A DNA stretch of 64,000 nt from Gammaproteobacteria bacterium. GTDB taxonomy: Bacteria; Pseudomonadota; Gammaproteobacteria; JACKNK01. Under the pieces are notes generated by a model. It ran no database searches, was not told where the DNA came from, and saw only the letters and a program-made list of their open reading frames with translations. The stretch's first letter is position 1. The number at the start of each line of letters is the position of its first letter. The position numbers and the translations under genes were made by a program. The stretch is from positions 389,331 through 453,330 of the forward strand of contig JACKNK010000001.1 of NCBI GenBank assembly GCA_024234955.1, given 5' to 3'. This document shows positions 521 through 22,840 of the stretch, piece by piece.

Positions 521-2494
521 ATGCATAGCCTTTGGAACGACACCGACGCCGCTGCCCTGACGAATGATCTGGCACTGCGCGTCTACAGCTCACGGCTTCT
601 GGGTCAGGAACCCGCACTGGTGCTCCACGGCGGCGGCAACACCTCGGTGAAGGTGCGTGAGACCAATACGGTCGGCGAACAGGAAGATCTCCTCTACGTC
701 AAAGGCTCCGGCTGGGATCTCGCCACCATTGAAGCGCCGGGCTATGTCCCGGTGCGCCTCGCGCATCTGCTGAAACTGGCCCAGCTCGAGGAGCTGTCCG
801 ATTCCGCGATGGTCAACGAGTTGAAGACGCATACGACCATTGCCTCGGCGCCAACCCCGTCGGTCGAGGCCATCCTGCACGCCGCCTTGCCCTACAAGTT
901 CGTCGATCACACCCACGCGGACGCCGTGGTGACGATTACCAACACCCCGGATGGCGAAGCGCGCATCCGTGCCCTTTACGGTGACCGGGTTGTCGTCATT
1001 CCTTACGTGATGCCCGGCTTCGACCTGGCGCGGCTGGTCGCCACCTTGTTTGCCAAGCAATCCGGCCCTCACACCGTCGGCATGGTGTTGATGAACCACG
1101 GCATCTTCTCCTTTGGTGAGTCCGCAAAGGAGTCGTACGAACGCATGATCCAACTGGTGACCGAGGCCGAGGACTACCTCGCCGAGAACGGCGCATGGAT
1201 ACTGCCTGAGCCGGTGCAGGTCGAAGATGTACCGCCGTTGCGTGAAAACATTGCGCGGCTGCGCGCCGACATCTCCGCGCATCTGGGGGCCGCCGCGATC
1301 GTCAGTCGCCGTGACGATCCCCGCGCCTGCGAATTTGCTCGCCGCGACGATCTGGCGCGTATCGCCCAGCAAGGCCCGGCTACGCCCGATCACGTCATCC
1401 GCACCAAGCGCGTGCCAATGCTAGGCCGCGATGTCGCGACCTATGCCAGCGATTACCGCACCTACTTTCAGGCCAATGCCGCGAAATCGCGGGTTCCCGT
1501 CACCATGCTGGACCCGGCGCCGCGTGTGATCCTGGATCGCGCGCTGGGGACGCTGACCGTCGGGCGCAGCAGCAAGGAGGCCGATATTGTCGGGGACATC
1601 TACCGTCACACCATCGACATCATCAGCCGCGCAGAAAAACTGGACCGTTGGCAGGCGCTGCCCGAGTTCGACATTTTTGAGGTCGAATACTGGGAACTGG
1701 AGCAAGCCAAGCTGAACAAGGGTGGCAAATCGCCGATGTTTCAGGGTGAGGTCGCCCTGGTGACCGGGGCGGCGTCCGGGATCGGACGCGCCTGTGTCGA
1801 AAGCCTGCTCAAACGGGGGGCGGCGGTGGTCGGACTCGATCTCAATCCAGAAATCATCAACCTGCTGCCGCGCTCGGACTTCCTGGGCGTACGCTGCGAT
1901 GTCACCGACATGACCGCCATTCAGGCCGCACTAGAATCCGCTGTACGCCGCTTCGGCGGCCTCGACATGGTGGTGTTGAACGCGGGAATGTTCCCGGGCG
2001 GACGTGCCGTGGCGGAACTGGATGACGAACTCTGGCGCAAGGTGATGGCGGTCAATCTGGACGCCAATCTGAGCGTGTTGCGCGAGTCCTACCCCCTCTT
2101 GAAGCTCGCCCCCAACAAAGGCCGTGTTGCCGTGGTCGGCTCCAAGAACGTCCCCGCGCCCGGACCGGGTGCGGCAGCCTATTCCGCCTCCAAGGCAGCA
2201 CTGAACCAGTTGATCCGCGTGAGTGCCCTGGAATGGGCCAAGGACGGAATCCGGATCAACTCCGTCCACCCGGATGCCGTATTCGATACCGGTCTGTGGA
2301 CCGACGAAGTTCTGGCGGCACGGGCCGCGCATTACGGCATGACCGTCGAGGCTTACAAGACCAAGAACCTGTTGCGCACCGAGGTGCATTCAGCGGATGT
2401 CGCCGAGATGGTTGCGGAGATGCTCGGGCCGCTCTTCGCGAAGACCACCGCCGCCCAGGTGCCCATCGACGGCGGCAACGACCGGGTTATCTGA
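521..2494 (+). CDS. Bifunctional class II aldolase/adducin-domain plus short-chain dehydrogenase (rhamnulose-1-phosphate aldolase/alcohol dehydrogenase-like).
   Basis: The N-terminal aldolase-II region reads LVLHGGGNTSVK...DHTHAD. The C-terminal SDR region has the Rossmann motif TGAASGIGRA and the active site YSASKAA. I place the start at MHSLWND (ATG 521) rather than at the track start 443. Confidence 0.8.
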   Translation: MHSLWNDTDAAALTNDLALRVYSSRLLGQEPALVLHGGGNTSVKVRETNTVGEQEDLLYVKGSGWDLATIEAPGYVPVRLAHLLKLAQLEELSDSAMVNELKTHTTIASAPTPSVEAILHAALPYKFVDHTHADAVVTITNTPDGEARIRALYGDRVVVIPYVMPGFDLARLVATLFAKQSGPHTVGMVLMNHGIFSFGESAKESYERMIQLVTEAEDYLAENGAWILPEPVQVEDVPPLRENIARLRADISAHLGAAAIVSRRDDPRACEFARRDDLARIAQQGPATPDHVIRTKRVPMLGRDVATYASDYRTYFQANAAKSRVPVTMLDPAPRVILDRALGTLTVGRSSKEADIVGDIYRHTIDIISRAEKLDRWQALPEFDIFEVEYWELEQAKLNKGGKSPMFQGEVALVTGAASGIGRACVESLLKRGAAVVGLDLNPEIINLLPRSDFLGVRCDVTDMTAIQAALESAVRRFGGLDMVVLNAGMFPGGRAVAELDDELWRKVMAVNLDANLSVLRESYPLLKLAPNKGRVAVVGSKNVPAPGPGAAAYSASKAALNQLIRVSALEWAKDGIRINSVHPDAVFDTGLWTDEVLAARAAHYGMTVEAYKTKNLLRTEVHSADVAEMVAEMLGPLFAKTTAAQVPIDGGNDRVI

Positions 2495-2502
2495 AGATTC
2501 GA

Positions 2503-3318
2503 TCAGCCGGTCTCGTCCTCGGACCCTGTGTCGTCGTCGCTACTCCTGGCGCGTTCGGCGCGATGCCGACGAATCCACATCAGGGTAAGCACCGGGCCGG
2601 ATACCACGTAAACCAGGAAACCGCCGAAAACGACCAATGCCGGGTTGATGGCAATCAGTGGGAACGCCAGCGCCAGGATGAGAACGTGCAGAAAACGGAT
2701 GCGCCCACGCAGATCGACCTGCTTGAAGCTGTAATACCGGACATTGCTGACCATCAGAACGCCGGCAAACACGGTGATGCACAACGCAAGCAGATTGAGA
2801 TCATCACCGGCAAAACCGAATTCATTGCCGAACCAGACCATGCCCGCAACCAGCGCGGCGGCGGACGGGCTCGGAAGACCCTGAAAGTAATGCTTGTCGG
2901 CGGTATCCACCTGGGTGTTGAAGCGCGCCAGCCGCAATGCCGTTGACGCCGTGTAAACGAACGCCCCCATCCAGCCGATCTTGAGCCCGAAGCTGCCCCA
3001 GCTGCCCAGACTGTGCAGCGACCATTGGTAGGCAACCAGCGCCGGCGCGACCCCGAAAGCCACCATATCGGTAAGGCTGTCGTACTCCATGCCGAAATCG
3101 CTGGTGGTGTTGGTCAGGCGGGCGACCCGTCCGTCCAGACCGTCCATCACCATGGCGACGAAGATCGCAATCGCCGCGTTGGCGAAATCCCCCGCCATCG
3201 CCGCGAGGATGCTGTAGAAGCCCGCAAACAGGCCTGCCGTGGTGAACAGGTTCGGCAGCAGATATATGCCGCGACGGGGTTTGCGACTGAGATCGGTATT
3301 CGTTTGCTTGGTGCTCAT
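2503..3318 (-). CDS. pssA: CDP-diacylglycerol--serine O-phosphatidyltransferase (CDP-alcohol phosphatidyltransferase family).
   Basis: The motif DGLDGRVARLTNTTSDFGMEYDSLTD matches D-G-x2-A-R-x8-G-x3-D-x3-D. The protein is a 271-aa polytopic membrane protein. Confidence 0.8.
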   Translation of the reverse strand: MSTKQTNTDLSRKPRRGIYLLPNLFTTAGLFAGFYSILAAMAGDFANAAIAIFVAMVMDGLDGRVARLTNTTSDFGMEYDSLTDMVAFGVAPALVAYQWSLHSLGSWGSFGLKIGWMGAFVYTASTALRLARFNTQVDTADKHYFQGLPSPSAAALVAGMVWFGNEFGFAGDDLNLLALCITVFAGVLMVSNVRYYSFKQVDLRGRIRFLHVLILALAFPLIAINPALVVFGGFLVYVVSGPVLTLMWIRRHRAERARSSDDDTGSEDETG

Positions 3319-3374
3319 AGGCCAGTTTGCGATGGTGGGATAACGGTCAGTTTAACAGTCGCCCAGACGCCCGG

Positions 3375-3917
3375 TTATGGCGAGGCGTTGTATGCCATGG
3401 AAAATTCGGCGATGGCCGCCGCTTTGTCACCTTGCGCACCGATACGTTCCCAGAACACATCGAAATCATCGCTCCCGGACTCGATGTCGAACTTCATCGC
3501 GTTTTTCCGACCGGCCAGGAACTGCGAGATATTGATGTTGACCGTGGTGACGTAATCCCGCGCTGCCGCCAACGCGGTGTCCTCAATGATTTCTGGCTGG
3601 TACAGATGCACCCCGTGTATCCAAGCGGGGATGATGAGTCCGGCCTGGGTGCGGCGCGCGTAACTGCGGGCCACTGCTTCGGGGTCGCGGCGCAGATGCA
3701 CGTAAAACACCTCGTTGGGGAAAGCTTGGTCCAGACGACCCAGAAACCAGGCCAGGCGATTGTCGGACTCGATGTGATCCTTGGGATAAGCCAGACGTGC
3801 TGGCCCGAGTTCGGCAACCCGTGTCTCGTGTCCGCTGCTGAAATTGCGGATATGCCGACAGGCCCGATCGAAGGTCATCGAACCGCAACGCCCGGTGCTG
3901 AGGACGAACACATTCAT
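3375..3917 (-). CDS. Small sulfotransferase-family protein (putative).
   Basis: The N-terminal LSTGRCGSMTF resembles the 5'-PSB P-loop. HLRRDPEAVARSYARR resembles the 3'-PB motif (RxP...S.Y). Its ATG overlaps the stop of the upstream GT2 (ATGA at 3914-3917). Confidence 0.5.
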   Translation of the reverse strand: MNVFVLSTGRCGSMTFDRACRHIRNFSSGHETRVAELGPARLAYPKDHIESDNRLAWFLGRLDQAFPNEVFYVHLRRDPEAVARSYARRTQAGLIIPAWIHGVHLYQPEIIEDTALAAARDYVTTVNINISQFLAGRKNAMKFDIESGSDDFDVFWERIGAQGDKAAAIAEFSMAYNASP

Positions 3918-5668
3918 GCACGGCTCCGAATTGCGGTCAGGGACTGGCTCCAGGCGGCGCGATCGGCGTTCAAGGCCAACAGTGCATCGCAGATCGCGGC
4001 TCGGCGAGCTTGCGAGGATTCGGCGACTCCTGGACGTCCTTCATGCCCGCCAAAATTGCGCGCGATGTTGGCGATGAAGGCATCAAACCGGCGCGATGTC
4101 TGCGCGTCGTTGAACCCCTTCCCCGTCAAGGCCGAAAACGCGCTCTGCACGCGTTCGAGTTTCACGAGGATGGTGCGTTGTTTGTCGATATAGCGCTGCT
4201 CCAGTTCTGCCATGGCCGCATCGACCTGCGCCTCGATTGCAGCGCGCCCGACGTCGGTTTCCGGGTACCCCTCGGCAATCAGGCGCTCGACGGTGAACAA
4301 CATCACATCGCCCCAGAATTGACGCTCGAACTCGCCGGACAGATCGACCTCGTTACGGACCCGGTCCACCCCGGGTCTGAATTCGGCACGTCCGGAACTG
4401 GCGGCGGTACGGGTGTGCAACAAAGGCAGATTCGCGGATACGAAGCGCCCCCCTAGCCGCGCCTTGATCAGCCGTCCAAGTACCGGCCCGGCCATCCGCA
4501 ACTTGAGTGGGGCAAAAGGGATGAAGTGCTCCAGGCCCCGGGTATTGATCACATAGTTGCCGGTGTAGACGGTGCGTGCCGGCGTCGTGTCGTCCAGGGA
4601 TCCGAGGTATTCGAAATGGCTGAGCCGGGTCGGATGCTCGCCATCGAAGAATCGATCCAGATGCGCGGCAAAACCGGCAAGGCAATCCCGATGATCGTGA
4701 TCGCCGTTTCGCGTGCAGCGATAGCGGAAGGCCTCTGCCGGCTTGAACCCGAACAGATCGGCCATGTCGTGATAGGCCGCATCGTTAGCCTGCCGGGCAT
4801 TGTCGCCATGAAAGGTGCAGGCCGCCGATGGCGCCAGATCACTGAGCTCATTCAGCAACAGCAACACATCGTCGAGAAAATTGCCGGCCATCACCGCTGG
4901 CGAAACCGGCGGATCGCCGACCACCTTGCCGGTCAACACATCGACATCGCCGCGCGAAAAGATCCGATCCAGGGTATGGAAATAGCTGATGCCATTGACG
5001 TCCCGGCCGCGATCGCCGTCGGGGATACGTACCTTGAACTGTTCATCGCTATCGACGAAAAAGAACAGGCGGTCCGGGGTCGCCAGTTCCGCGAGGCGCA
5101 GGTAAGCGAGATTGCGGCTTACCGAGGCACCTTTATGCGGATGCGCGGCACGGGCACCAAGCACATGATCCAGTGCCCCGCGATCCGGCAACGCTGCAAG
5201 ACACCGATGTTGCGCGTCCGTGCCGAAATATTCGGTGTTCAAGCCCTGAGCGCTGAATTCCTCCGCCAGATTCCGGTTGGCCGCCACGTTCCTCGCACTC
5301 GCCGAATCATCCGCAATCAGCGCGCGCACCTTGCAGAACTGGCCATCTGCCATTCCGCCGTAACGAAAGTCACGACACTGACCGAGCAGCGAATCCAGAA
5401 CCGCCCGCAATTGTTCCGGTCGATCCGCGACCGGAATCACCACGATGAATTCATGGCGTCCTGCAACGGGCAACGCATCGCGGTAGGAAGCAAGCGCTGA
5501 GGCCGACGCCCCGGTCTCCCAGACTTGCGCCTCGCAATTCGCGATCTCCGTCACCGCCACCTCGCAGCGGTGCATGGACAAGGGCAAACATTGCGCCCTG
5601 GCGCTGCGTTCGCAAACACAGTACGACCCGCCGCGATCACCGGTTGGTCTCGTAATTCGGAAAGGCAT
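3914..5668 (-). CDS. Family-2 glycosyltransferase-like protein, large (584 aa) with a long C-terminal extension.
   Basis: EFIVVIPVADRPEQLRAVLDSL is a GT-A N-terminus. IADDSAS is a DD motif. FVDSDEQF is a DxD motif. The track start at 5668 overlaps the upstream TPP gene by 32 nt. An alternative start at MHRCEV (~5575) would remove that overlap. Confidence 0.6.
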   Translation of the reverse strand: MPFRITRPTGDRGGSYCVCERSARAQCLPLSMHRCEVAVTEIANCEAQVWETGASASALASYRDALPVAGRHEFIVVIPVADRPEQLRAVLDSLLGQCRDFRYGGMADGQFCKVRALIADDSASARNVAANRNLAEEFSAQGLNTEYFGTDAQHRCLAALPDRGALDHVLGARAAHPHKGASVSRNLAYLRLAELATPDRLFFFVDSDEQFKVRIPDGDRGRDVNGISYFHTLDRIFSRGDVDVLTGKVVGDPPVSPAVMAGNFLDDVLLLLNELSDLAPSAACTFHGDNARQANDAAYHDMADLFGFKPAEAFRYRCTRNGDHDHRDCLAGFAAHLDRFFDGEHPTRLSHFEYLGSLDDTTPARTVYTGNYVINTRGLEHFIPFAPLKLRMAGPVLGRLIKARLGGRFVSANLPLLHTRTAASSGRAEFRPGVDRVRNEVDLSGEFERQFWGDVMLFTVERLIAEGYPETDVGRAAIEAQVDAAMAELEQRYIDKQRTILVKLERVQSAFSALTGKGFNDAQTSRRFDAFIANIARNFGGHEGRPGVAESSQARRAAICDALLALNADRAAWSQSLTAIRSRA

Positions 5669-7292
5669 CCTTGTCGATGAACAACTCGATCAGGTTGATG
5701 CCCGCCACAAAATCGGCGGCCTCGAATGCCGCATCGAGATCGGTTTCACGCTCGATCCGGAAGTGCGCGATCCCGAACGAGGCGGCGAGTTGGGCATAGT
5801 CCGGATTGACGAAATCGCAGTCGATGTAGCGTTGTTCGTATTTCTGAAACTGGTTCTTGCGAACCAAGCCCATCGTCGCATTGTTGAACAGGATCACGGT
5901 CAACGGGATCCGGTAATTCACCGCCGTCATCAGTTCCATGCAACACATCTGGAACCCGCCATCCCCGATAATCGCGAAAGTCGGACGATCCTCGGCAAAA
6001 CGCGCCCCGATCGCGGCGGGAATCCCGTGCCCGAGCGACGAGATGCCGGAATTCGGATAAAAACGGTTGCCGCTGGAAACCCGGAAAAAGTTCTGCGCAA
6101 AGATGATGTTGTCGTCGAAGACCTGAATCCCGTCCGGAAACCGTGCCTGCAACACCTCAAAGAAGTGCTTGACCAAGCTGAACTGCGCATCGAAGACCGG
6201 CGAGCCGACCGCCGTAAAGTCACTGCGACCGGGTAGCGGCGCGATCTGCTTGGCGGCGACGCCGCGCGCCTTGAGTCGGTCGCGGAGGTCTTCGAGCACG
6301 TCCTTGAGATCGGCGCAGATCGCCACATCGGCGCGGAACACTTTTTCGAGCTGATCCGGATTGTTGTCGATCTGGGCAATGCGCTTGTTGTCAAGCAGAC
6401 CGTGATCCCACAAATAGCTGGTCCGCTCATTGAAGGCCGCGCCCAGAAACACGATCAGATCGGCATGTTCGACGATGTACTGATAGGCCGAGCCATCCGA
6501 AGTCACCCCCAGACTGCCCAGCGACAGCGGCCCCTGTTCACAGATGACGCCCTTGCCCTTGAGGCTGGTGGTGACCGGCACGTTCAACATCTCGGAGAGA
6601 TCCGACACCACATTGCCGGCATTGGCGAGCATGCAGCCATAACCCGCCACGATCACTGGATTCCTGGCATCCTGAACGAGGTCGGCGAGCCGGTTGTAAA
6701 GCGGCGATTCCCGGGCATCGCGGCGGCTGGCTCGGCGCGTCAGCACCTTGTCCAGGACCGACTCATCGACCAGCTCCTGTTGCACGTTGTACGGAAAGCT
6801 CAGCAACACCGGCCCGGGGTTGTCGGAAAGCAGAATCTGCGAGGCGCGATTGAGCACGTTCGCCAGGTAATCGCCCCGCTCGACGATCTTGTTGTAACGC
6901 GTGATACCCGAGAACAGCGCGTTCTGATCGACACTGCCGCCCTCCCCCGAGCTTTCCTGCATGCCACCCTTGCCGAAAATATGCGTGGATGTCTCACCCG
7001 TGATCACCAGCACCGGCTGCTTGTCCACATAGGCGTTGGCAATACCGGTCACCAGGTTGGTCGCACCCGGACCGGCGGTGGTGATGCAGGCGCCAATCTT
7101 TCCCGAGGCACGCGCATAGCCCCCGGCCATGAACGAGGCGCCTTGTTCATGCTTGACCAGTACCGTCCGGATGGCAGACGCAAAGAGGCCGTCGTAGACC
7201 GGCAGGATGTGCGCGCCAGGCATTCCGAAGATCACTTCGATGCCAAGGCGTTCCATATAGCGAACGAGCAATTCGCTTACTTGAACGTTCAT
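5637..7292 (-). CDS. Thiamine-pyrophosphate-dependent enzyme of the acetolactate-synthase-like family; substrate unknown.
   Basis: N-terminal Pyr domain: GMPGAHILPVYDGL...TAGPGATNLVTGIANAY. C-terminal TPP-binding motif: IGDGGFQM...NN. Not clearly canonical IlvB. Confidence 0.8.
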   Translation of the reverse strand: MNVQVSELLVRYMERLGIEVIFGMPGAHILPVYDGLFASAIRTVLVKHEQGASFMAGGYARASGKIGACITTAGPGATNLVTGIANAYVDKQPVLVITGETSTHIFGKGGMQESSGEGGSVDQNALFSGITRYNKIVERGDYLANVLNRASQILLSDNPGPVLLSFPYNVQQELVDESVLDKVLTRRASRRDARESPLYNRLADLVQDARNPVIVAGYGCMLANAGNVVSDLSEMLNVPVTTSLKGKGVICEQGPLSLGSLGVTSDGSAYQYIVEHADLIVFLGAAFNERTSYLWDHGLLDNKRIAQIDNNPDQLEKVFRADVAICADLKDVLEDLRDRLKARGVAAKQIAPLPGRSDFTAVGSPVFDAQFSLVKHFFEVLQARFPDGIQVFDDNIIFAQNFFRVSSGNRFYPNSGISSLGHGIPAAIGARFAEDRPTFAIIGDGGFQMCCMELMTAVNYRIPLTVILFNNATMGLVRKNQFQKYEQRYIDCDFVNPDYAQLAASFGIAHFRIERETDLDAAFEAADFVAGINLIELFIDKDAFPNYETNR

Positions 7293-7500
7293 TCCGATTC
7301 TGACCGTGTGTTGCGCGACCGGTGGCTACCTGACCACCCCGGACGATCAATGTTTTAGTTTGAGCACACCCAGGACGTGCATCGGGCGAGACCAGCCGAA
7401 ATTTAACCCAGATCAGCCACCCGAACATCCACGCGCTCTCCGCCCCAGTAGTGATGCGCTATCCTGACCAAGAACCGGTAACCGGACGGAGACAACAACA

Positions 7501-8043
7501 ATGGGATCATCCCGAAAACTGGAAGACCTTACCGACGAGGTCGCCGCCAACGCCAAACGCGTCGTCGAAGTGCTTGATGGCGTCGGTATCGATCTGCTGA
7601 TCTATTGCACCCTTCGACCTCTCGAAGAACAGGCGCGCTTGTACCGCCAATCGCGCCCCTGGTCGAAGATCAAAAGCAAGATTCTCGACTTTCAGAATCG
7701 CGGTTACGGCTACCTCGGCGACGTCCTCGAACAAGTCGGTCCGTGCAGCGGCCCACATGTCACCAACGCCGCGCCCGGCGAATCCTGGCACAACTACGCC
7801 GAAGCCTGGGATGCGGTGCCATTGATCGGTGGCAAACCCGCCTGGAGCTATTTCGACGCCCGTCCGGAATGGGACGCCTACGGGGAATGTGTGCGCCAGG
7901 TCGGCATGGTATGGGCTGGCGACTGGACCAACTTCCGCGAATACCCACACGCGCAGAAACGTCCGGGCGGAAATCCGCTTCGGGAATCCGATCCCGACAC
8001 CATCCATGAAATCCTGGTCGGCAACGGCCTGCTCACCACCTGA
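7501..8043 (+). CDS. Peptidase M15-family (D-Ala-D-Ala carboxypeptidase or phage L-alanyl-D-glutamate endolysin-like) protein.
   Basis: ESWHNYAEAWDAV matches the M15 SxHxxGxAxD zinc-ligand motif (A replaces G). The protein is 180 aa with no signal peptide, typical of phage endolysins. Confidence 0.6.
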   Translation: MGSSRKLEDLTDEVAANAKRVVEVLDGVGIDLLIYCTLRPLEEQARLYRQSRPWSKIKSKILDFQNRGYGYLGDVLEQVGPCSGPHVTNAAPGESWHNYAEAWDAVPLIGGKPAWSYFDARPEWDAYGECVRQVGMVWAGDWTNFREYPHAQKRPGGNPLRESDPDTIHEILVGNGLLTT

Positions 8044-8060
8044 TACCGGGAGGAAACCCA

Positions 8061-8855
8061 ATGTCTTTCTCTATCCCCTTGCTGGCCATGTTGCCCTCGA
8101 TCTTCTCGACGGTCGCCAAAGTGACCGATCTCTTCAACGCTGGCAAAAAGGTGGTCGAAACCGTTACCGGTGAACCGTCCAAGGCCTCGAACCCGACCGA
8201 ACTGCAGCAAGAAGTCACCCAGCTCCCACAAGCCAAACAGGCTCAATGGGCGGAGATCATGAGTCAGAAAATCGATCTCTATAAGGCCGAAACCGATCGC
8301 TTGGAAATCGAAGAGGGGCGGATCGACCGCAACATCACCAGCAAACTTACGCCGAAAGCCGCCAACGAAATCGCCATCATGCGTCAGACTACGCGCCCCT
8401 GGGCGGTGCGCATGATGGTGCATTACGTATTCTTTCCCTGGTATCTGATCGTCATCGATCTCGTTCAGGAACTCTTCAACCGCTGGATATTGAAGGGGCT
8501 GTTCCAGGCAGAACACGGCGTCGATGTGTTCAACACCTTCAACCACGTCTTCGGAACCGTGGTGCGTGGCGCGCAGGAAGCCAGCGAAACCAACGCCGCA
8601 GAAGCCATCCAGATACTGACTTCCGGCGCCACCACAATGAGTGCGATGTACATGGAGTCGGTTGGCTGGGCCACCGCCATCATCATCACTTACATGGGCC
8701 TGCGCGAATACAGCAAAGCCAAGGGCACCAGCGGCGACACCCCGAACCCAGGGATCGTGGCTGACCCCAGCAAGGATGTGATGGAGAGCGTGACCGGCGT
8801 ACTGGAAGGCAGCGCGGAACTGATCGCCAAGGTGCGGCGTGCCTTCGAGAAATGA
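8061..8855 (+). CDS. Putative holin-like membrane protein with 3 predicted TM segments.
   Basis: It lies 18 nt downstream of the M15 peptidase. There are three hydrophobic segments: an N-terminal one, VHYVFFPWYLIVIDLV, and WATAIIITYMGL. Long charged linkers sit between them. The architecture resembles 3-TM holins. This is an inference only. Confidence 0.4.
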   Translation: MSFSIPLLAMLPSIFSTVAKVTDLFNAGKKVVETVTGEPSKASNPTELQQEVTQLPQAKQAQWAEIMSQKIDLYKAETDRLEIEEGRIDRNITSKLTPKAANEIAIMRQTTRPWAVRMMVHYVFFPWYLIVIDLVQELFNRWILKGLFQAEHGVDVFNTFNHVFGTVVRGAQEASETNAAEAIQILTSGATTMSAMYMESVGWATAIIITYMGLREYSKAKGTSGDTPNPGIVADPSKDVMESVTGVLEGSAELIAKVRRAFEK

Positions 8856-9120
8856 GTTTATCCTCGGTGGCTGTCCTCGCTTGACAGCGACCGAGCAAGA
8901 CCTGAATCTTGGCTCCATGAATTCCGTGATCGTACTCGGCACCAAATCCTGGCTACGTTGGCAACACAACGTCGCCGTTGCCGTGGTGTGATCAAGGTTC
9001 TCCCAGCCTCACTCTGATACCCCCAGGCAGCCGCAGATCACCGTCGCGACTGCCTTTTGTTTTCTGCCCTTTCCGTTCCGCGTCATGTGATCCCGGCTCC
9101 GCTACTGCAAGGAGCGACAC

Positions 9121-10050
9121 ATGTCCCCAGTCCCTACTCCCCCTCCATCCGTTCCATTGAGCGGCGTATTTCTGGTCGTGCTCGGCTCGATCGCATTTTC
9201 CTCCAAGGCGATCATGATCAAGCTCGCCTACGCAGTCGGCGTTGATCTCGATGCCATCACGTTGATGACGTTACGGATGGGCTTCGCGCTGCCATTCTAT
9301 CTGGGCATGTTGTGGTGGCTGCGCGACGCGGATCATGCCCCACTGAGCAACGTGCAACGGCTGTTGTTGGTCGCGGTCGGCGTCTGTGGCTATTACCTGG
9401 CCAGCCTGTTCGACTTCTGGGGGCTTGAATATATAAGCGCCAGCCTTGAACGCCTGATTCTGTATCTCTATCCGACCTTGGTGATCCTCATATCGGCGGC
9501 GCTGGAGCGACGTCGGCCCCGGCGTGAACAGATTGTTGCGCTCACGATCAGCTATATCGGGATTGCACTGGTGGTCGCCAGCGACTTTGACAGTAGCAAT
9601 GACAAGATCGGGCTGGGCAGTCTTCTGGTCTTCGCCAGCGCCCTTTCCTACGCATTATTCCTGGTCGGCAATGGTCGACTGGTCGGTGTGCTGGGGTCGC
9701 GCCGGTTCACTGCCTGGAGCATGTTGATCGCCACCGCCGGGGTATTTCTGCATTTTGTCATTCGCGCCGATTTTTGCGCCCTGAATCAACCCATAGAGGT
9801 CTATGCCTGGGGCCTCGCTCTTGGCGTGATCTCCACGGTGGCAGCGTCATTCATGCTCAACGCAGGTCTGCACAGACTCGGCGCAGATACCACCGTCCTG
9901 CTGAGCATGGTCGGCCCGGTGTCCACACTGACGCTCGGCGCATTGGTCCTGGATGAGCACCTGCTGCCGGTGCAATGGCTCGGCGCTGCCCTGGTCCTGG
10001 CCGGCGTGGTGGTAACCGGTTATCCGATGTCGCGCCGCAACCGAACATAG
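9121..10050 (+). CDS. DMT-superfamily (EamA-like) transporter.
   Basis: About 10 TM segments, two EamA-like halves, 309 aa. Confidence 0.75.
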   Translation: MSPVPTPPPSVPLSGVFLVVLGSIAFSSKAIMIKLAYAVGVDLDAITLMTLRMGFALPFYLGMLWWLRDADHAPLSNVQRLLLVAVGVCGYYLASLFDFWGLEYISASLERLILYLYPTLVILISAALERRRPRREQIVALTISYIGIALVVASDFDSSNDKIGLGSLLVFASALSYALFLVGNGRLVGVLGSRRFTAWSMLIATAGVFLHFVIRADFCALNQPIEVYAWGLALGVISTVAASFMLNAGLHRLGADTTVLLSMVGPVSTLTLGALVLDEHLLPVQWLGAALVLAGVVVTGYPMSRRNRT

Positions 10051-10209: not shown

Positions 10210-12600
10210 ATGTCATCCGTACCCACCTTCGTCGACACGCCACCGCTTTCCCAGACGTCCTCGTGGGCATCGAAGCCCTTGCTGGCTTTCGCGCCTGCGC
10301 CTTCAACGGTTCAAACGGCGGATCGTGCGCTTCGTCTGCACGAGGCATTGATCGCCCTGGGACTGGATCGCCCTTGGCACAGCATCGATTTGCACGCCTT
10401 GCCGTTTGCACCGGGAGACATAACAGTCGGATCGGAAAGCGAATTGCAGACCGCAGTGATCGGGAGTGCGGACAAGGTTGATCTGCCGCGTCGCATTCTC
10501 GACTCCGATTACTTCGCCAATATTGCGGAACGTGCACAGCGTGCCGAATCCTCACCCCGCCCGGCGACTCGATTACAACGCTTCGTCGAGGAAAATCCGG
10601 AACAGGTCTGGGAGAACGCCTGGGTGCGCCTGCCTTGGGCGAGCCTCAATCCGCGTGCATGCCAGCTCTGGTCTCAGGACATGCTCCGCGACCGCGAGGA
10701 CCCAAGCAAAGGTCCCCGCAGCGATCGGGCACGGTTCCATTCGCTCGATGAGCACGGCGCGCTCTGGCTTCGGGTGCCGATCAGCTATCTGTTGAAACTC
10801 GCGCTCGCCCAACTGGCAGGCGATTACGCACCCCGATCGGCACACCGCGCCGAAACCGCCGAGCGCCTGATGGCGCATTTTCTGAACGACAACTCCTCGC
10901 CGGAGACGTTCTCCTTCCATGTCAGTGAGCCCGTCGGTCGGGACGGTTCGGTCGGCGAGGCGGTGGCCGTCGAAACGGGCAAACGCTTCCTGTTGACGCA
11001 ATGGTTGCTCGCCTATGCCGAACAGGCTTTCGCACTGGCCGCCCACGGCCAGCGTCCGCTGGCGTATTACTCGCCACACGCGCCGGTGCGATTGCACGAT
11101 CTGAACGATTCGGTCTCCGACAGCTTCTTCCGCGAACTGTTCCTGTCACCCTGTCTGTCCGGGTGGCGACATGGGGAGGAAAAACACCGCTATATGGCCT
11201 TGTGTCACACCGTCCTCAGTCGCAGCCAGTTGAACGGGCTTCAGGTATTGCGCGAGGCCGGCGTCATCGTCAACAACCTGGTGGTGATTCCGCGCACATC
11301 CAATCTCAGCCTGGCGAACAACGGCACCCACATCAGCCTTGGCAGTCGCCGTCTCAGCGCCCTGCTCGACGCCGGCTCGCCGGTTTTCCGGCCCGCCCAT
11401 GAAAAGGTCTTCGGTGATCTGGTCATCAAGGTCGTCGAACACTTCCTGCCCTTGTTCGTGGGCCTTTACTCGGCGGCGCCGTTCCGCCTCGACTACGCGG
11501 ACTTCCACCCCGAACGGGTACTCGGCTTCCTGCCCCACGAATTGCATGGCGCACACCTGCGCATGCTGTGGCGTAACTGGAAAGCCAAGGCGCGACTCAA
11601 TCTCATACCCGGCACGTCGTTGACACCGATGGGGCCGCAATGGCTCGATCGGACCATCGCCACCGTCTTGCGCAAGCGTGGCGACCGCGTTCCCGATTAC
11701 CGCTTGATCGATTATCTGGTCGCGCTTGCCAGTACTGACCGCAGCCCCGCTCTGGATGGCACACCCGGCAACCAGCAAAGCCTGCTCAACGATCTGGACG
11801 ATCTCGGGGTATTCGATCGCGGCATGTCGCTGTATCTCCCATTCAAACAGCGGGAACACGCGAAAATGGGGTTCAGCGGCTTCGAGGCGCGTTGGTTCAG
11901 TCTGTTCCCATCGTTGGACAGGGATCTGGCGAAGGCCGTCGACCTGCAGGTGCTGCTCACGGCCCTGGCGGTCAAACTGATCAGTCAGGGCCTCACCCAC
12001 GAGGACATCCCCGACACCCGGTTCTGCGAGAGCGAACGGCGGCAATTCTTGTTCGTGGCCGCCGCAGGACTGCGTTGCGGCTATGTGCAGCGAAACACCG
12101 ACCGACCTCAAAACCGTTTCCTTGATCGCCTGCTGGAGGACACTCGCCGTACCCGCCCGAGCCGTCTGTACCGTCACTACGCCAAGGTTTACCTGGACGA
12201 CTACCGTACCGGGTTGCTCCGCTTTATCGAACATGAAGCCGCCGACCTGATCGCCGCTTTCGATATGCAGGGTGTGATTGACGACCTGCACCAGCGCCTT
12301 ACTCATAGCGCCGACAGCGCCCTCGATCGGGAAATCTGTGCCGGGCTCGGAATCCATAATCCGCTGCGAGCGACCGGTCGCGAATACAACGCCCAGGCCG
12401 AGCGGCTCTATCGCGAGACCTTCCGTGAAAGGCATCGCGACGAAGCCATCCGGCATCTCGCTGACGAGATCGGCGACGCCGACCCCGACGCACAGACTTT
12501 ATTGCGCAACCCCGATCCGGCGTCCTTACCGGAACGCATCGGCCTGCTCCTCGACAGCCTGGCCCGGGATGCCATCCGAAACCGGAGCACCTCGGCATGA
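10210..12600 (+). CDS. Large hypothetical protein (796 aa) with no domain I recognise. It is the first gene of a coupled 3-gene operon.
   Basis: Long uninterrupted ORF. Its stop overlaps the start of the downstream PSD-like gene (12597-12600). The long antisense ORF 11146..12456 is read as a GC artefact. Confidence 0.55.
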   Translation: MSSVPTFVDTPPLSQTSSWASKPLLAFAPAPSTVQTADRALRLHEALIALGLDRPWHSIDLHALPFAPGDITVGSESELQTAVIGSADKVDLPRRILDSDYFANIAERAQRAESSPRPATRLQRFVEENPEQVWENAWVRLPWASLNPRACQLWSQDMLRDREDPSKGPRSDRARFHSLDEHGALWLRVPISYLLKLALAQLAGDYAPRSAHRAETAERLMAHFLNDNSSPETFSFHVSEPVGRDGSVGEAVAVETGKRFLLTQWLLAYAEQAFALAAHGQRPLAYYSPHAPVRLHDLNDSVSDSFFRELFLSPCLSGWRHGEEKHRYMALCHTVLSRSQLNGLQVLREAGVIVNNLVVIPRTSNLSLANNGTHISLGSRRLSALLDAGSPVFRPAHEKVFGDLVIKVVEHFLPLFVGLYSAAPFRLDYADFHPERVLGFLPHELHGAHLRMLWRNWKAKARLNLIPGTSLTPMGPQWLDRTIATVLRKRGDRVPDYRLIDYLVALASTDRSPALDGTPGNQQSLLNDLDDLGVFDRGMSLYLPFKQREHAKMGFSGFEARWFSLFPSLDRDLAKAVDLQVLLTALAVKLISQGLTHEDIPDTRFCESERRQFLFVAAAGLRCGYVQRNTDRPQNRFLDRLLEDTRRTRPSRLYRHYAKVYLDDYRTGLLRFIEHEAADLIAAFDMQGVIDDLHQRLTHSADSALDREICAGLGIHNPLRATGREYNAQAERLYRETFRERHRDEAIRHLADEIGDADPDAQTLLRNPDPASLPERIGLLLDSLARDAIRNRSTSA

Positions 12601-13649
12601 ATTCCGGCCAGCCCCTGGCGCCGAGTCCCGCGCCTCGAAACGCAACCCGTTCCCACCAATACATCGACCGACGGACCGGTCAGGTGCTCGACGAGCATCT
12701 CTATGCGGACCGGCTGATCCAGTTTCTGTACTCGACCGCGCGCGAACACAGCCCGAACGTGTTTCGGATGCTCACCGGACCGCGCATGTCCGGTCTGCTC
12801 GGCTATCTGAACTACGACCTGATGCTGGGCGCGCGCCTGACCGGCAATCAACGTTTCCTGCGCAAGCTCGGCATCGACCTGGGCGAATGTCTGGATGCGG
12901 CGCAACTGACGACCGCGCGCGCCATTTTCGAACGGCGCATCCGCTATTGGGATGTGCGCCCGATGCCGGTGGACAATCGCATCGTGGTCTCCCCCGCCGA
13001 TGCCCGGGTTCTGGTGGGATCGCTGAACCAGCATTCGCGCTTTTTCATCAAGGAGAAGTTCTTTCATTTCGAGGAATTGTTGGGGCCACACAAGCGGAAT
13101 TGGCTGGAAAGACTCTCCGGAGGCGAGTTCGCGGTGTTTCGCCTGACTCCAGACAAATACCACTACAACCACTGTCCCGTGTCCGGCCAGGTCGTCGATT
13201 TCTACACCGTGTCCGGCCGTCACCACGCTTGCAACCCCAACGCCGTGGTGCATATCGCGACGCCCTACAGCAAAAATGAACGTGTTGTCACGGTCATCGA
13301 CACCGATGTGCCCGGCGGCTCGCAGGTTGGCGTGGTCGCCATGATCGAGGTGGTCGCGCTGATGATCGGCCAGGTGGTACAGACGTACAGCGAACATGCT
13401 TACGAGCGTCCGGTAACGATGCGCCGGGGCCTGTTCCTGCGACGTGGACAACCCAAAAGCCTCTACCGCCCGGGCAGTTCCACCGACGTCTTACTATTTG
13501 AGCCAGACCGCATCCGGTTCGACGGCGATCTGCTCCGCAATCGCCTGCATCGCACCGCGACCAGCCGCTTCAGCCTGGGGTTCGCGGAGAATCTGGTCGA
13601 AACCGACATCGCCGTTCGCGCTTCGCTGGCACGTCGCCTCGGAGATTGA
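12597..13649 (+). CDS. psd: Phosphatidylserine decarboxylase-like pyruvoyl-dependent proenzyme.
   Basis: The C-terminal ...LYRPGSSTDVLLFE matches the PSD self-cleavage site (G-S-[ST] followed by hydrophobics). Size (350 aa) and overall pattern fit the PSD family. It could be the housekeeping Psd or a paralogue. Confidence 0.65.
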   Translation: MNSGQPLAPSPAPRNATRSHQYIDRRTGQVLDEHLYADRLIQFLYSTAREHSPNVFRMLTGPRMSGLLGYLNYDLMLGARLTGNQRFLRKLGIDLGECLDAAQLTTARAIFERRIRYWDVRPMPVDNRIVVSPADARVLVGSLNQHSRFFIKEKFFHFEELLGPHKRNWLERLSGGEFAVFRLTPDKYHYNHCPVSGQVVDFYTVSGRHHACNPNAVVHIATPYSKNERVVTVIDTDVPGGSQVGVVAMIEVVALMIGQVVQTYSEHAYERPVTMRRGLFLRRGQPKSLYRPGSSTDVLLFEPDRIRFDGDLLRNRLHRTATSRFSLGFAENLVETDIAVRASLARRLGD

Positions 13650-14794
13650 TCATGTTTTCGACATTCGCCCCGGAGATGCTGATCCTCGGCCTCAGTCTGC
13701 TGCTTGCACCCTATCTCCGCTGGGGTTTCACCACCCTGGTCGGCGAGCGTTGGCAATTCTTCGCCACCATCCCGACACATAAGGACGACGACGGACGCTG
13801 GCATGGCGTCAATCTGACCTTTTACGGACTGCTCTCGGCGAACGCCTATGTGGTCGCGTTGGCAATCTTCATATTGCTCTGCGGCAGCGCGGGCGTGTCG
13901 GCGCCAATCAGTCTGTTGACCCTGGCCTTGATGCTTCTGGTCTGCGTGCCCGCTTCGCGCTATGTCGCCTGGCTGGTGGAACGCAAATGGCACAGTTTTA
14001 CCGTTGGTGGCGCCTTCTTCGCCGGTGTCGTGGCGGCGCCTGCGGTGATCGCGATCGTCAATGGCGCGATCGGGTTCGGCAACATGTCAGCCGCTACGCC
14101 GGTTCCGGTTCTACCCACTCTGGCGGCGATGGCGATCGCCTATGCCTATGGCGAGGGCCTGGGGCGCTTGTCCTGCATCAGTTTCGGCTGCTGTTACGGA
14201 AAACCGGTCGATCAGGCGCCCGATTGGGTGGCGAGGCACTTCCAGCGCTGGAACTTCACCTTTTTTGGCAATACCCGAAAAGTCGCTTACGCAGGTGGAC
14301 TTCAAGGCGTGAAACTGATCCCCATCCAGGCCATTACCGCCCTGACTTACACCCTGATCGGGCTACTCTCTACCTGGCTCTATCTGCGCGGCATGATCAC
14401 TGCCGCCTTGTTCACGGCGCTGATCGTGACCCAGATCTGGCGATTCGCGTCGGAGATGTTGCGGGCCGATTATCGTGGCGATGGTCGTATTTCCGCATAT
14501 CAGATCATGGCGCTGGTCGCGATCGCGCTCACCGGCATTTATGCCCTGATGGCGCAGGAATCGAGCACGACATTTCGGGTTATCGATGGGTTATCGGCCC
14601 TCTGGAACCCAGCGGTGATTCTCAGTCTGCTGGCAGTCTGGGTTCTCATCTTCACCTACATGGGCCGTTCGACGATCACCGAAGCCACACTTCAGGTCCG
14701 GGTGCGCACCGATCAGGTGCGGATGCCGGCAACGATGGCGGCACCGACGCCGCGCCCCGTCAACGAGGTCGGATCGCCTTCGAAACCTTCCTGA
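13646..14794 (+). CDS. Polytopic membrane protein, prolipoprotein diacylglyceryl transferase (Lgt)-like.
   Basis: About 7-8 TM segments. HGVNLTFYGLL resembles the Lgt N-terminal HWYGLMY. GEGLGRLSCISFGCCYGKP resembles the Lgt signature G-R-[LI]-G-x-F-x-N-G-E-x-[WY]-G. Its start overlaps the stop of the PSD-like gene. Confidence 0.5.
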   Translation: MIMFSTFAPEMLILGLSLLLAPYLRWGFTTLVGERWQFFATIPTHKDDDGRWHGVNLTFYGLLSANAYVVALAIFILLCGSAGVSAPISLLTLALMLLVCVPASRYVAWLVERKWHSFTVGGAFFAGVVAAPAVIAIVNGAIGFGNMSAATPVPVLPTLAAMAIAYAYGEGLGRLSCISFGCCYGKPVDQAPDWVARHFQRWNFTFFGNTRKVAYAGGLQGVKLIPIQAITALTYTLIGLLSTWLYLRGMITAALFTALIVTQIWRFASEMLRADYRGDGRISAYQIMALVAIALTGIYALMAQESSTTFRVIDGLSALWNPAVILSLLAVWVLIFTYMGRSTITEATLQVRVRTDQVRMPATMAAPTPRPVNEVGSPSKPS

Positions 14795-18983: not shown

Positions 18984-19059
18984 TCCCCGGTAGCTCAGTC
19001 GGTAGAGCGGATGACTGTTAATCATTAGGTCGGCGGTTCGAGCCCGTCCCGGGGAGCCA
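18984..19059 (+). tRNA. tRNA-Asn (anticodon GTT).
   Basis: The sequence is TCCCCGGTAGCTCAGTCGGTAGAGCGGATGACTGTTAATCATTAGGTCGGCGGTTCGAGCCCGTCCCGGGGAGCCA. It has a 7-bp acceptor stem, a GTT anticodon inside CTGTTAA, a T-loop GGTTCGAGCC and an encoded CCA. Confidence 0.9.
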
Positions 19060-21452: not shown

Positions 21453-21653
21453 ATGGGCGATTCTGACGATGATGACTTGATTGATGATGATGACGAATTC
21501 AGCTCCGATGACGACCTGAATTTCGATTCCGAGGATGAGGAGGTTGAACTACGCCATCGTTCACCGCTCGAACTTCGACGCCAGCTAGAGCGTCGTCGTG
21601 AGTTATCCGAACTCCGACGTCTGCTTGACGACCCCTTTCTGGAACTTGATTGA
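21453..21653 (+). CDS. Small (66 aa) extremely acidic protein.
   Basis: MGDSDDDDLIDDDDEFSSDDDLNFDSEDEEVELRHRSPLELRRQLERRRELSELRRLLDDPFLELD. A GGAGAA RBS lies 8 nt upstream. Its stop overlaps the start of the next gene. The longer track ORF from 21318 lacks an RBS and has a biased N-terminus. Confidence 0.55.
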   Translation: MGDSDDDDLIDDDDEFSSDDDLNFDSEDEEVELRHRSPLELRRQLERRRELSELRRLLDDPFLELD

Positions 21654-22828
21654 ACCAACAACATTCGGCGACCGCTCCAGCCTCCTCCGCACCTGATTCG
21701 ACGGTCCCCTCCGCGTCGTCATTGCCGATTTCCAAGGCCGTACCACGGGTCGCGGGCAAAACCGACCTGGACTCCTTAGTCGCCCTGGAAGACCGCTGCT
21801 TCGCCAGCGATCGCCTGAGCCGCCGGCAATTCCGTCACCTGCTGCAACGCGGCAACGCACAGATTCTGGTCATCGACGCCGATGCGCACGGCCTCGCAGC
21901 CGCCATCGTCGTCCTGTTCCGCCGTGCGACCTCCATTGCCCGTCTGTATTCCATCGCGGTGGACCCGGATCAACGTGGGCGTGGTTTCGCCCAGACCCTG
22001 GTTGCGGCTGCAGAGGCGGAGGCGTGGGCGCAGTCGCGCGCGTGGATGCGTCTGGAAGTCCGCAAGGACAACACTGCATCCATCGGGCTGTTTGAGCGCC
22101 TTGGGTATCGCCGTTTTGGCGAATACCGGGACTATTACGAAGACCATATGGACGCCTGGCGCTTCGAGAAGCAGCTCGATCCTGGCCTGAAGCCACCGTT
22201 GGCACGGGTTCCTTATTACGAGCAGACCCTCGATTTCACCTGTGGCGCGGCCTGTCTGATCATGGCGATGCAGGCCCTGAAGCCGGATGAACAGCCGGAT
22301 CGCAAGCTGGAACTGCGCTTATGGCGTGAAGCCACCACCATTTTCATGACCTCAGGTCATGGCGGCTGTGGCCCCTATGGCTTGGCATTGGCCGCCAAAC
22401 ATCGTGGTTTCGACGTTCAGGTCTTTGTGTCGGATCGTGAACCGCATCTCATCGAGTCGGTGCGCAGCGACGCAAAAAAGGAAGTCATGAGCCTGGTCCA
22501 GGAAGATCAGGAAGAGCAACTGCAGCGTGAAGGCGTCCCCATTTCGACTGACGTCCCGGACATCGTTGCACTCGAAGCCTTGTTCCACGATGGTCACATA
22601 CCGCTGGTGCTGATCAGCTCGTGGCAGATTTATCAGGAACGATGGCCGCATTGGGTGGTGATCAATGGTTTCGATGAACATTTCATCTATGTTCATGACC
22701 CCTTCGTCGATTATGACAACGGTGAGAATCGCCTGGATTCGATCAACATGCCCATCAGCCGCGAGCAGTTCACACGCATGGCCCGTTACGGTCGGCGCGG
22801 TCTGCAAGCGGTCATCACCCTGCGCTGA
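21650..22828 (+). CDS. Fusion protein: GNAT (RimI-like) acetyltransferase domain plus a C39-like papain-fold cysteine peptidase domain.
   Basis: GNAT motif A is LYSIAVDPDQRGRGFAQTLV. The C39-like catalytic Cys context is YYEQTLDFTCGAACLIMAMQAL, and the downstream His is HWVVINGFDEHFIYVHDP. The start is TTG per the track and is uncertain. Confidence 0.7.
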   Translation: MNQQHSATAPASSAPDSTVPSASSLPISKAVPRVAGKTDLDSLVALEDRCFASDRLSRRQFRHLLQRGNAQILVIDADAHGLAAAIVVLFRRATSIARLYSIAVDPDQRGRGFAQTLVAAAEAEAWAQSRAWMRLEVRKDNTASIGLFERLGYRRFGEYRDYYEDHMDAWRFEKQLDPGLKPPLARVPYYEQTLDFTCGAACLIMAMQALKPDEQPDRKLELRLWREATTIFMTSGHGGCGPYGLALAAKHRGFDVQVFVSDREPHLIESVRSDAKKEVMSLVQEDQEEQLQREGVPISTDVPDIVALEALFHDGHIPLVLISSWQIYQERWPHWVVINGFDEHFIYVHDPFVDYDNGENRLDSINMPISREQFTRMARYGRRGLQAVITLR

Positions 22829-22840
22829 GGCTATAGAGCA

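Follow-up and report, generated by a model that had tools for sequence, protein, structure and literature searches.

We describe a conserved three-gene cassette, TPP-BIG-SMALL, on the minus strand of a 64,000-nt stretch of DNA from a Gammaproteobacteria bacterium (assembly GCA_024234955.1, contig JACKNK010000001.1, positions 389,331-453,330 of the forward strand; hereafter the window). TPP (5637-7292, 551 aa) encodes an enzyme that depends on thiamine diphosphate (ThDP) and resembles acetolactate synthase (ALS), BIG (3914-5554, 546 aa) encodes a GT-A-fold protein whose C-terminal region is long and helical, and SMALL (3375-3917, 180 aa) encodes a miniature sulfotransferase-like protein of the type that binds 3'-phosphoadenosine 5'-phosphosulfate (PAPS). 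Comparison of loci from many genomes indicates that TPP and BIG form the obligate core of the cassette and that its third gene is an exchangeable tailoring enzyme coupled translationally to BIG. We propose, with about even confidence, that the three genes constitute a self-contained cytoplasmic cassette for a soluble sulfated glycoside or short glycan. An initial annotation of the window had grouped them with a fourth gene, pssA (2503-3318, minus strand, 271 aa), which encodes a CDP-diacylglycerol-serine O-phosphatidyltransferase and which we treat as a housekeeping neighbour outside the conserved cassette.

Conservation of the cassette

Loci related to the cassette were collected in two scans. 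The scan started from SMALL used one genome per species and gave 567 loci with a SMALL relative, of which the best 80 were analysed together with four direct look-ups; the scan started from BIG contributed 80 analysed metagenomic loci. The locus counts rest on tblastn positions, and the caller of open reading frames (ORFs) is crude in high-GC DNA.

TPP lies directly upstream of BIG in every one of the 50 loci that have at least 1.9 kb of upstream sequence. The position directly downstream of BIG is occupied by SMALL in 38 of the 67 loci with room for it, and by a CapK/PaaK-like adenylate-forming ligase of ~440 aa in 22 loci (including, in our numbering, L090, L100, L102, L109-L111, L122, L134, L135, L140-L144 and L171-L172). 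CapK-like ligases are capsule-locus enzymes, and no member of the family is present in the window. In L171 and L172, the loci of this form whose gene calls were read, the ligase gene overlaps BIG by 4 nt; an overlap of the same length joins BIG and SMALL in the window, in Thiohalomonas and in Endoriftia. A lasso-B2-like transglutaminase gene (PF13471) sometimes accompanies the CapK form, and a TviB-like UDP-GlcNAc 6-dehydrogenase gene (469 bits) adjoins the cassette in six loci, sometimes together with that form.

The exact order TPP-BIG-SMALL is found in about half of the SMALL loci analysed. All of these belong to Gamma- or Betaproteobacteria, mostly sulfur oxidisers, and the carriers include Thiohalomonas, Ca. 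Endoriftia, Sedimenticola, Thiolapillus, Thiobacillaceae, Hydrogenophilales and Parasulfuritortus. Among chemosynthetic symbionts that have been studied closely, SMALL relatives occur in Ca. Endoriftia, Ca. Thiodiazotropha and Sedimenticola. The window itself encodes a SoxA/TsdA-type cytochrome (34266-35108, minus strand) and a flavocytochrome c sulfide dehydrogenase flavoprotein (39705-41006, minus strand), from which we take its organism to be a sulfur oxidiser; these markers agree with the range of taxa that carry the cassette.

One further gene recurs in the neighbourhood. A Methyltransf_24 gene with an N-terminal transmembrane (TM) helix is found nearby in 52 of the 127 BIG loci, usually convergent and just downstream of SMALL (for example at 8539-9300, minus strand, of the Ca. 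Endoriftia persephone locus L002), and is absent from the window. The same gene pairs with SMALL, with TPP-BIG not nearby, in L022, L026, L037, L054 and L057.

In Ca. Endoriftia persephone, and among the loci only there, genuine ilvI-ilvH-ilvC genes lie directly upstream of the cassette (828-8531 in L002-L004), so that a genuine acetohydroxyacid synthase (AHAS) coexists with the TPP paralogue of the cassette. In Pseudomonas, ilvIHC and pssA lie side by side as one array. The position of the cassette after ilvIHC in Endoriftia and before pssA in the window suggests a possible insertion of the cassette into an ancestral array of this kind.

Gene boundaries and spacing

All four genes were recovered as minus-strand ORFs at the positions given by the initial annotation, with a coding-like GC content at third codon positions (0.70-0.77). 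The stop codon of BIG and the start codon of SMALL share an ATGA junction, which is read directly in the sequence at 3914-3917, and the stop of SMALL is separated from the start of pssA by a 56-nt spacer, both as annotated. The annotated overlap of 32 nt between TPP and BIG fares less well. It refers to the longest BIG ORF (3914-5668, 584 aa) and is probably not real. The Shine-Dalgarno sequence GAGG lies 5 nt upstream of a GTG codon at 5554, and the 546-aa product that starts there is also the ENA call and the call in a closely related sister lineage (the NCBI call is 555 aa). BIG therefore likely starts at this GTG, which would leave a gap of about 82 nt after TPP. The BIG and SMALL entries of the window carry the gene tags H6981_02065 and H6981_02060.

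The promoter scan found no sigma-70-like promoter within 2300-7700, and the three terminator-like hairpins in the same interval are fewer than expected from shuffled sequence, none of them falling in the spacer between SMALL and pssA. No riboswitch or leader RNA was detected with Rfam at the gathering threshold in the window and four cassette loci, where the search yielded only the tRNA gene at 18984-19056.

The ALS-like ThDP enzyme

The three domains of ThDP enzymes are all present in TPP (Pfam), in agreement with the earlier description of a carboligase or decarboxylase homologue at the head of the group, and as the first gene TPP belongs to the conserved unit. The protein falls below the curated cut-off in all 51 of its NCBIfam matches. 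The best of these is TIGR00118 (acolac_lg) with 373 bits against a cut-off of 538; the AruI-like model gives 343 bits against 500, the two Xsc models give 253 against 676 (TIGR03457) and 266 against 620 (PRK07525), and the PRK ALS equivalogs are likewise missed by a wide margin. Classification with hidden Markov models (HMMs) consequently places TPP neither with IlvB/IlvG nor with Xsc. Identification of TPP as Xsc, sulfopyruvate decarboxylase or IolD was rejected, the scores being under every NCBIfam cut-off.

TPP was aligned with 24 of its orthologues and with three further proteins, namely IlvI of Endoriftia, IlvB of E. coli and BbmA. It is 66-69% identical to the two orthologues compared (65-69% among the matches listed) but much less so to the other three (IlvI 30%, IlvB 33%, BbmA 34%). 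With the ALS large subunits (IlvB/IlvG/IlvI; 6lpi, 1n0h, 1ybh) TPP shares the three-domain ThDP/FAD-type architecture, the catalytic Glu of the HEQGA motif, which is invariant in the TPP subfamily within KHEQGA, and the ThDP motif GDG-X26-NN (GDGGF...FNN), a kind of motif that marks the whole ThDP superfamily and not ALS specifically. It also retains the Arg of the AHAS FDDR motif, a residue assigned to binding of the acceptor carboxylate, within the subfamily sequence FNERTSYLWD.

The differences from IlvB/IlvG/IlvI are of several kinds. Besides the identity of only 30-33%, there is a 7-residue insertion that gives the invariant subfamily sequence GKGG(L/M)QESSGEGGS where AHAS has G(S/T)DAFQE. 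The specificity Trp of AHAS is replaced by Asn (RKNQ), again without exception across the subfamily; in AHAS II and plant AHAS this Trp of GMV(R/M)QW selects 2-ketobutyrate. Moreover, no regulatory-subunit gene (ilvN/H) adjoins TPP, no ilvH homologue is found in the window, and TPP is obligately linked to BIG. The top-scoring solved homologue is BbmA (8x3x; 305 bits, against 241 bits for E. coli ALS I). BbmA (8x3x/8xod) and TPP have in common the overall fold and a loop of the GKGxxQES type; they differ in most of their residues, at the 34% identity given above, and in the FNER segment of TPP, for which BbmA has LGDW. Our literature search found no publication on BbmA, and its reaction is not used as evidence here. 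On these sequence comparisons TPP is a distinct subfamily of ALS-like carboligases, neither IlvB/G/I nor Xsc. Its orthologues are named in databases either 'thiamine pyrophosphate-binding protein' or, wrongly, 'acetolactate synthase'.

The GT-A-fold protein

BIG matches no Pfam or NCBIfam model, and the sequence-profile search gave no meaningful match in the PDB. The GT2 family PF00535 is matched by 7 of 32 BIG relatives, marginally (E 0.036 or worse), and not by the window protein. When the BIG profile was compared with 1.84 billion cluster representatives at 50% identity, the search returned only 387 proteins and did not reach canonical GT2 enzymes, which argues that the family is isolated in sequence from ordinary GT2. 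The family is very strongly conserved and has more than 2,000 homologues in public data. The conserved motifs are VIPVADRP, DDS, DSD(Q/E)(E/Q)F, GDPPVSPAVMAGNF, YHDMA, GEHPTR, ARTxYTGNY, LRMxGP and NLP(M/L)LH(K/T)RT. Within the DSD motif, D168 and D170 are invariant and S169 is nearly invariant.

The assignment of BIG to a fold comes from its AlphaFold2 (AF2) model, which has a pLDDT of 85. All significant Foldseek matches of the model in the PDB are GT-A glycosyltransferases (E 7e-6 to 1e-3), among them hyaluronan synthase, GlfT2, K4CP, BcsA, MpgS and GpgS. BIG resembles two groups of these enzymes, MpgS (2wvm/3kia) and GpgS (3ckq/7p8g), which act on small acid acceptors, and the soluble polymerising enzymes GlfT2 (4fiy), K4CP (2z86) and hyaluronan synthase (7sp9). 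The shared features are the Rossmann-like GT-A core, an N-terminal 'IPVxxxP' strand and a DSD (DXD) motif similar to that of GpgS. Compared with the known GT-A enzymes, BIG stands outside any glycosyltransferase sequence family and has ~190 extra, highly conserved residues in addition to its long helical C-terminal region. Judging from the model, BIG is a GT-A-fold protein with a DXD motif. This is a resemblance at the level of fold and not membership in GT2, so that the label 'large GT2' under which the gene was first described claims more than the HMM results allow.

The sulfotransferase-like protein

The AF2 model of SMALL has a pLDDT of 93, and its Foldseek matches in the PDB at ranks 1-27 are all sulfotransferases (SULT7A1, TPST1/2 and the CurM sulfotransferase domain among them; E 3e-5 to ~1e-3, query TM-score, TMq, 0.49-0.66). 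The highest TMq (0.66) belongs to the CurM domain (4gbm), and the activating sulfotransferase SgdX2 (8y9p, 195 aa) is also matched. Identification of SMALL as a P-loop kinase was rejected: kinases appear only from rank 28, and the loop has no Walker Lys.

Both PAPS-binding-like motifs reported by the initial annotation are present and conserved. The 5'-phosphosulfate-binding (5'-PSB) loop GRCGS occupies residues 9-13 and the RDP...S motif residues 77-85. All 34 homologues aligned have G9, R10, G12, R77 and S85, and at least 90% of them have S13; the full invariant set is G9, R10, G12, H30, H48, E50, D52, R54, H74, R77, S85, R89 and D121. Since the PAPS-binding residues, the loss of which on alignment had been raised as a counter-indication, are kept, the sulfotransferase reading of SMALL stands. 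At the sequence level the SMALL profile has a single PDB match, the olefin-synthase sulfotransferase domain 4gox, and it is weak (E 0.82). In this match FVLSTGRCGSTT aligns with FILSSPRSGSTL at the 5' motif and YVHLKRDxxAVARSY with YIHLVRHPYAVIESF at the 3' motif.

SMALL thus has the fold of the CurM/olefin-synthase (OLS) sulfotransferase domains (4gbm/4gox), TPST (3ap3), the cytosolic SULTs and Sulfotransfer_3, and it shares with them the loop (GRCGST, compared with PRSGST) and the R-x7-S motif in the same order and spacing. It differs in its size (180 aa, against ~250-300 aa) and in lacking the C-terminal elements of the larger enzymes. Sulfotransfer_3 is matched weakly by 13 of the 34 relatives (best E 6e-5). 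The Stf0 family (PF09037) was rejected, as no aligned family member matched it at E<=5 despite the 'Stf0' names in UniRef. By its modelled fold and both motifs, SMALL is a PAPS-type sulfotransferase-like protein. At least 782 homologues are present in public data. A neighbour-joining tree of SMALL is indicative only.

Carbohydrate context

Relatives of SMALL that lie outside the proteobacterial cassette are often extended by ~30 aa at the C-terminus and are found in classical polysaccharide clusters. The gene order is Wzy-like, Wzx flippase, SMALL and three GT2 genes in Methylotuvimicrobium sp. KM1, and GT4, methyltransferase, SMALL, AsnB-like amidotransferase and UDP-GlcNAc 2-epimerase in Roseimaritima; in Allorhodopirellula the SMALL relative adjoins a GT4 gene. 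Embedding of the relatives in such clusters of Wzx, Wzy and glycosyltransferase genes indicates a carbohydrate acceptor for SMALL. In cyanobacteria, sulfotransferases in Wzx/Wzy clusters accompany sulfated exopolysaccharide, as in the synechan xss cluster of Synechocystis (PMC8205485), which offers a setting comparable to that of the relatives in Methylotuvimicrobium and Roseimaritima. In contrast to clusters of the xss type, the cassette of the window contains no genes for a flippase, a polymerase or export, and its sulfotransferase gene is linked to those for BIG and a ThDP enzyme.

Two loci contain a distant BIG-like protein (about 150-220 bits to the BIG profile). In L173 (163-8769) it occurs with radical SAM/SPASM, GT2, Sulfotransfer_1/3 and GT4 genes, and in L174 (5930-12384) with a PaaK-like ligase, radical SAM/SPASM, UDP-galactopyranose mutase and PhyH genes. 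Taken together, the genes around BIG point to carbohydrate chemistry and not to lipids.

Proposed function and alternatives

TPP, BIG and SMALL are all free of hydrophobic or TM segments, on which basis the pathway would be cytoplasmic. The three steps that we infer for it are the following: 1) the ALS-like ThDP enzyme would decarboxylate a 2-oxo acid and couple it with an acceptor, which would be a second carbonyl compound or 2-oxo acid, giving an alpha-hydroxy-keto(acid) unit; 2) BIG, with a nucleotide sugar and a DSD/His metal site, would join the sugar and this building block or extend a short glycan; and 3) SMALL would move sulfate from PAPS to a sugar hydroxyl. Lineages with the CapK-like ligase would yield an amidated or acylated variant in place of the sulfated one. 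We tentatively suggest, in more general terms, that TPP-BIG could represent an undescribed pathway found widely among sulfur-oxidising Gamma- and Betaproteobacteria, including the symbionts of Riftia and of lucinids, and that its products could be a class of small glycosylated alpha-hydroxy-keto(acid) compounds finished with either sulfate or an amide/acyl group.

Several observations weigh against the cassette as we propose it. No APS kinase or other PAPS-supply gene was found among the window ORFs scanned with Pfam and NCBIfam. The window BIG protein has no glycosyltransferase HMM match, its TM-scores in Foldseek are low (~0.3, with only the GT-A core superposing), and polymerases such as hyaluronan synthase, GlfT2 and K4CP are among its best structural neighbours, so that a polymer could be the product. 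The window SMALL protein has no Pfam match of its own. SMALL homologues are also found without TPP-BIG nearby, sometimes only with Methyltransf_24, and SMALL may therefore act on a product other than that of TPP-BIG.

The most viable alternative, which we nevertheless consider unlikely, is that the genes make a glycan polymer or oligomer, either capsule-like or cytoplasmic, with BIG as a soluble polymerase, the ThDP enzyme acting on a keto-sugar nucleotide in the manner of YerE, and SMALL or the CapK-like ligase decorating the chain. YerE adds a two-carbon branch to a keto-sugar nucleotide. The top Foldseek matches of BIG are processive or polymerising enzymes, BcsA being another of them, the families to which SMALL and CapK belong are characteristic of loci for polysaccharides, and the TviB-like dehydrogenase near six of the loci fits the same picture, as do the UDP-galactopyranose mutase gene near the BIG-like protein of L174 and the GT2, GT4 and sulfotransferase genes near that of L173. 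Set against this, TPP-BIG is not accompanied by any conserved gene for a flippase, Wzy, an ABC exporter, a priming transferase or a 4,6-dehydratase among the loci analysed, and BIG has no membrane segment.

A second alternative retains a role of SMALL in biosynthesis and changes the fate of the sulfate. SMALL could be an activating sulfotransferase like the CurM/OLS domains or SgdX2, adding a transient sulfate that serves as a leaving group, in which case the final product would be free of sulfate. The single sequence-level match to 4gox and the position of the CurM domain at the top of the TMq range, with SgdX2 among the matches, speak for such an enzyme. The 4gox match is weak, however; no thioesterase, acyl carrier protein or other elimination partner is conserved; and the relatives of SMALL lie in polysaccharide clusters, a setting in which one would expect the sulfate esters to be stable. 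On balance we regard this alternative as improbable.

In the model of the initial annotation, PssA and the three other proteins are encoded in one operon for a head group, sulfated or sulfonated, of a glycolipid or phospholipid. This model is in our judgment decidedly improbable. Parts of it hold. A sulfotransferase-like protein is indeed coupled to a GT-fold protein in one unit with TPP, the four genes share a strand with a 56-nt gap and no terminator-like hairpin between SMALL and pssA, the adjacency of pssA is kept in the sister lineage, and a divergent operon with PSD-like and Lgt-like genes lies 7 kb away. The lipid and sulfonate parts are not supported. PssA scores above the cut-off of its equivalog model (119.2 bits against 107 for TIGR00473; PF01066 E 6e-21), which bears out its original label, and it is a multi-span membrane protein. 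TPP, BIG and SMALL are soluble. Besides the window, pssA adjoins the cassette in only 3 of the 127 BIG-containing loci, all contigs of the one sister lineage, in which SMALL is 83% and PssA 93% identical to the window proteins and the wider synteny is shared as well. The conserved unit in the neighbourhood comparison accordingly consists of TPP, BIG and SMALL without pssA, and none of the genes conserved with the cassette among the loci analysed handles acyl groups or lipids. As for a sulfonate route, the Xsc scores (253-266 bits against cut-offs of 620-676) are far too low, and no ComDE-like or SqdB-like gene is present. The data favour pssA as an ordinary housekeeping phosphatidylserine synthase that is merely a neighbour of the cassette, a possibility that the initial annotation had also allowed for, and it may or may not be co-transcribed with the cassette.

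It is very improbable that TPP is an extra AHAS isozyme for branched-chain amino acids with a functionally meaningless adjacency to BIG and SMALL: acolac_lg is its best HMM family, it retains the catalytic Glu and the ThDP motifs, and the Endoriftia cassette directly follows ilvIHC, but the score and the identity to true IlvI/IlvB are low, the insertion and the Trp-to-Asn change are invariant, no ilvN/H adjoins the gene, the synteny with BIG is complete (50 of 50), and Endoriftia has a genuine IlvIH besides.

Other features of the window

Convergent with pssA, and separated from its stop by 8 nt, is a plus-strand gene for a bifunctional class II aldolase/short-chain dehydrogenase (443-2494; NF006196, 1092 bits against 831). 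On the other side, divergent from TPP, are genes for a VanY-like protein (Peptidase_M15_4) and for a protein of 264 aa that matches no family (7501-8855, plus strand), an arrangement that is kept in the sister lineage. The divergent operon located 7 kb from pssA (10210-14794, plus strand) contains three genes that are translationally coupled through overlaps of 4 nt (12597-12600 and 13646-13649). Their products are a protein of 796 aa that matches no Pfam or NCBIfam model, a divergent phosphatidylserine decarboxylase (PSD)-like protein (123 bits against a cut-off of 371) and a divergent Lgt-like protein (33 bits against 334), and the genes may form an uncharacterised lipid-modifying operon. 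A link of the 796-aa protein to the 762-aa protein encoded downstream of the Thiohalomonas cassette was rejected, as the two have no similarity. Farther along the plus strand are the tRNA gene mentioned above and, at 21650-24343, a gene for a fusion of GNAT acetyltransferase and DUF3335 (peptidase C39-like) followed by one for a RimK-like ATP-grasp protein that contains an RLAN domain; the two together resemble a module for the ligation of peptides or amino acids.

Significance

The enzyme superfamilies involved are familiar; the combination of genes, the BIG family and the product are unfamiliar. Our literature search, which covered the gene combination, BbmA/CsmA, and the sulfotransferases of Endoriftia, Thiodiazotropha, Sedimenticola and Thiohalomonas, found nothing on the cassette, and the named database entries that we found for BIG and SMALL are all 'hypothetical' or generic. 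Both families are widespread in public data and have no Pfam or NCBIfam model.

The absolute synteny of TPP and BIG offers a clean three-gene unit for testing. Identification of the product would show what a large set of genes now called 'hypothetical' does in bacteria of the sulfur cycle and would end the mis-annotation of TPP genes as acetolactate synthase. It would also place ALS-like ThDP enzymes in a new reaction context and would probably define a new glycosyltransferase family together with a minimal sulfotransferase scaffold. If TPP-BIG is indeed an undescribed pathway of sulfur-oxidising bacteria, symbionts included, its product might be a new compatible solute of anionic character or might serve as a cofactor or a signal, and BIG would be the founder of a new glycosyltransferase family.

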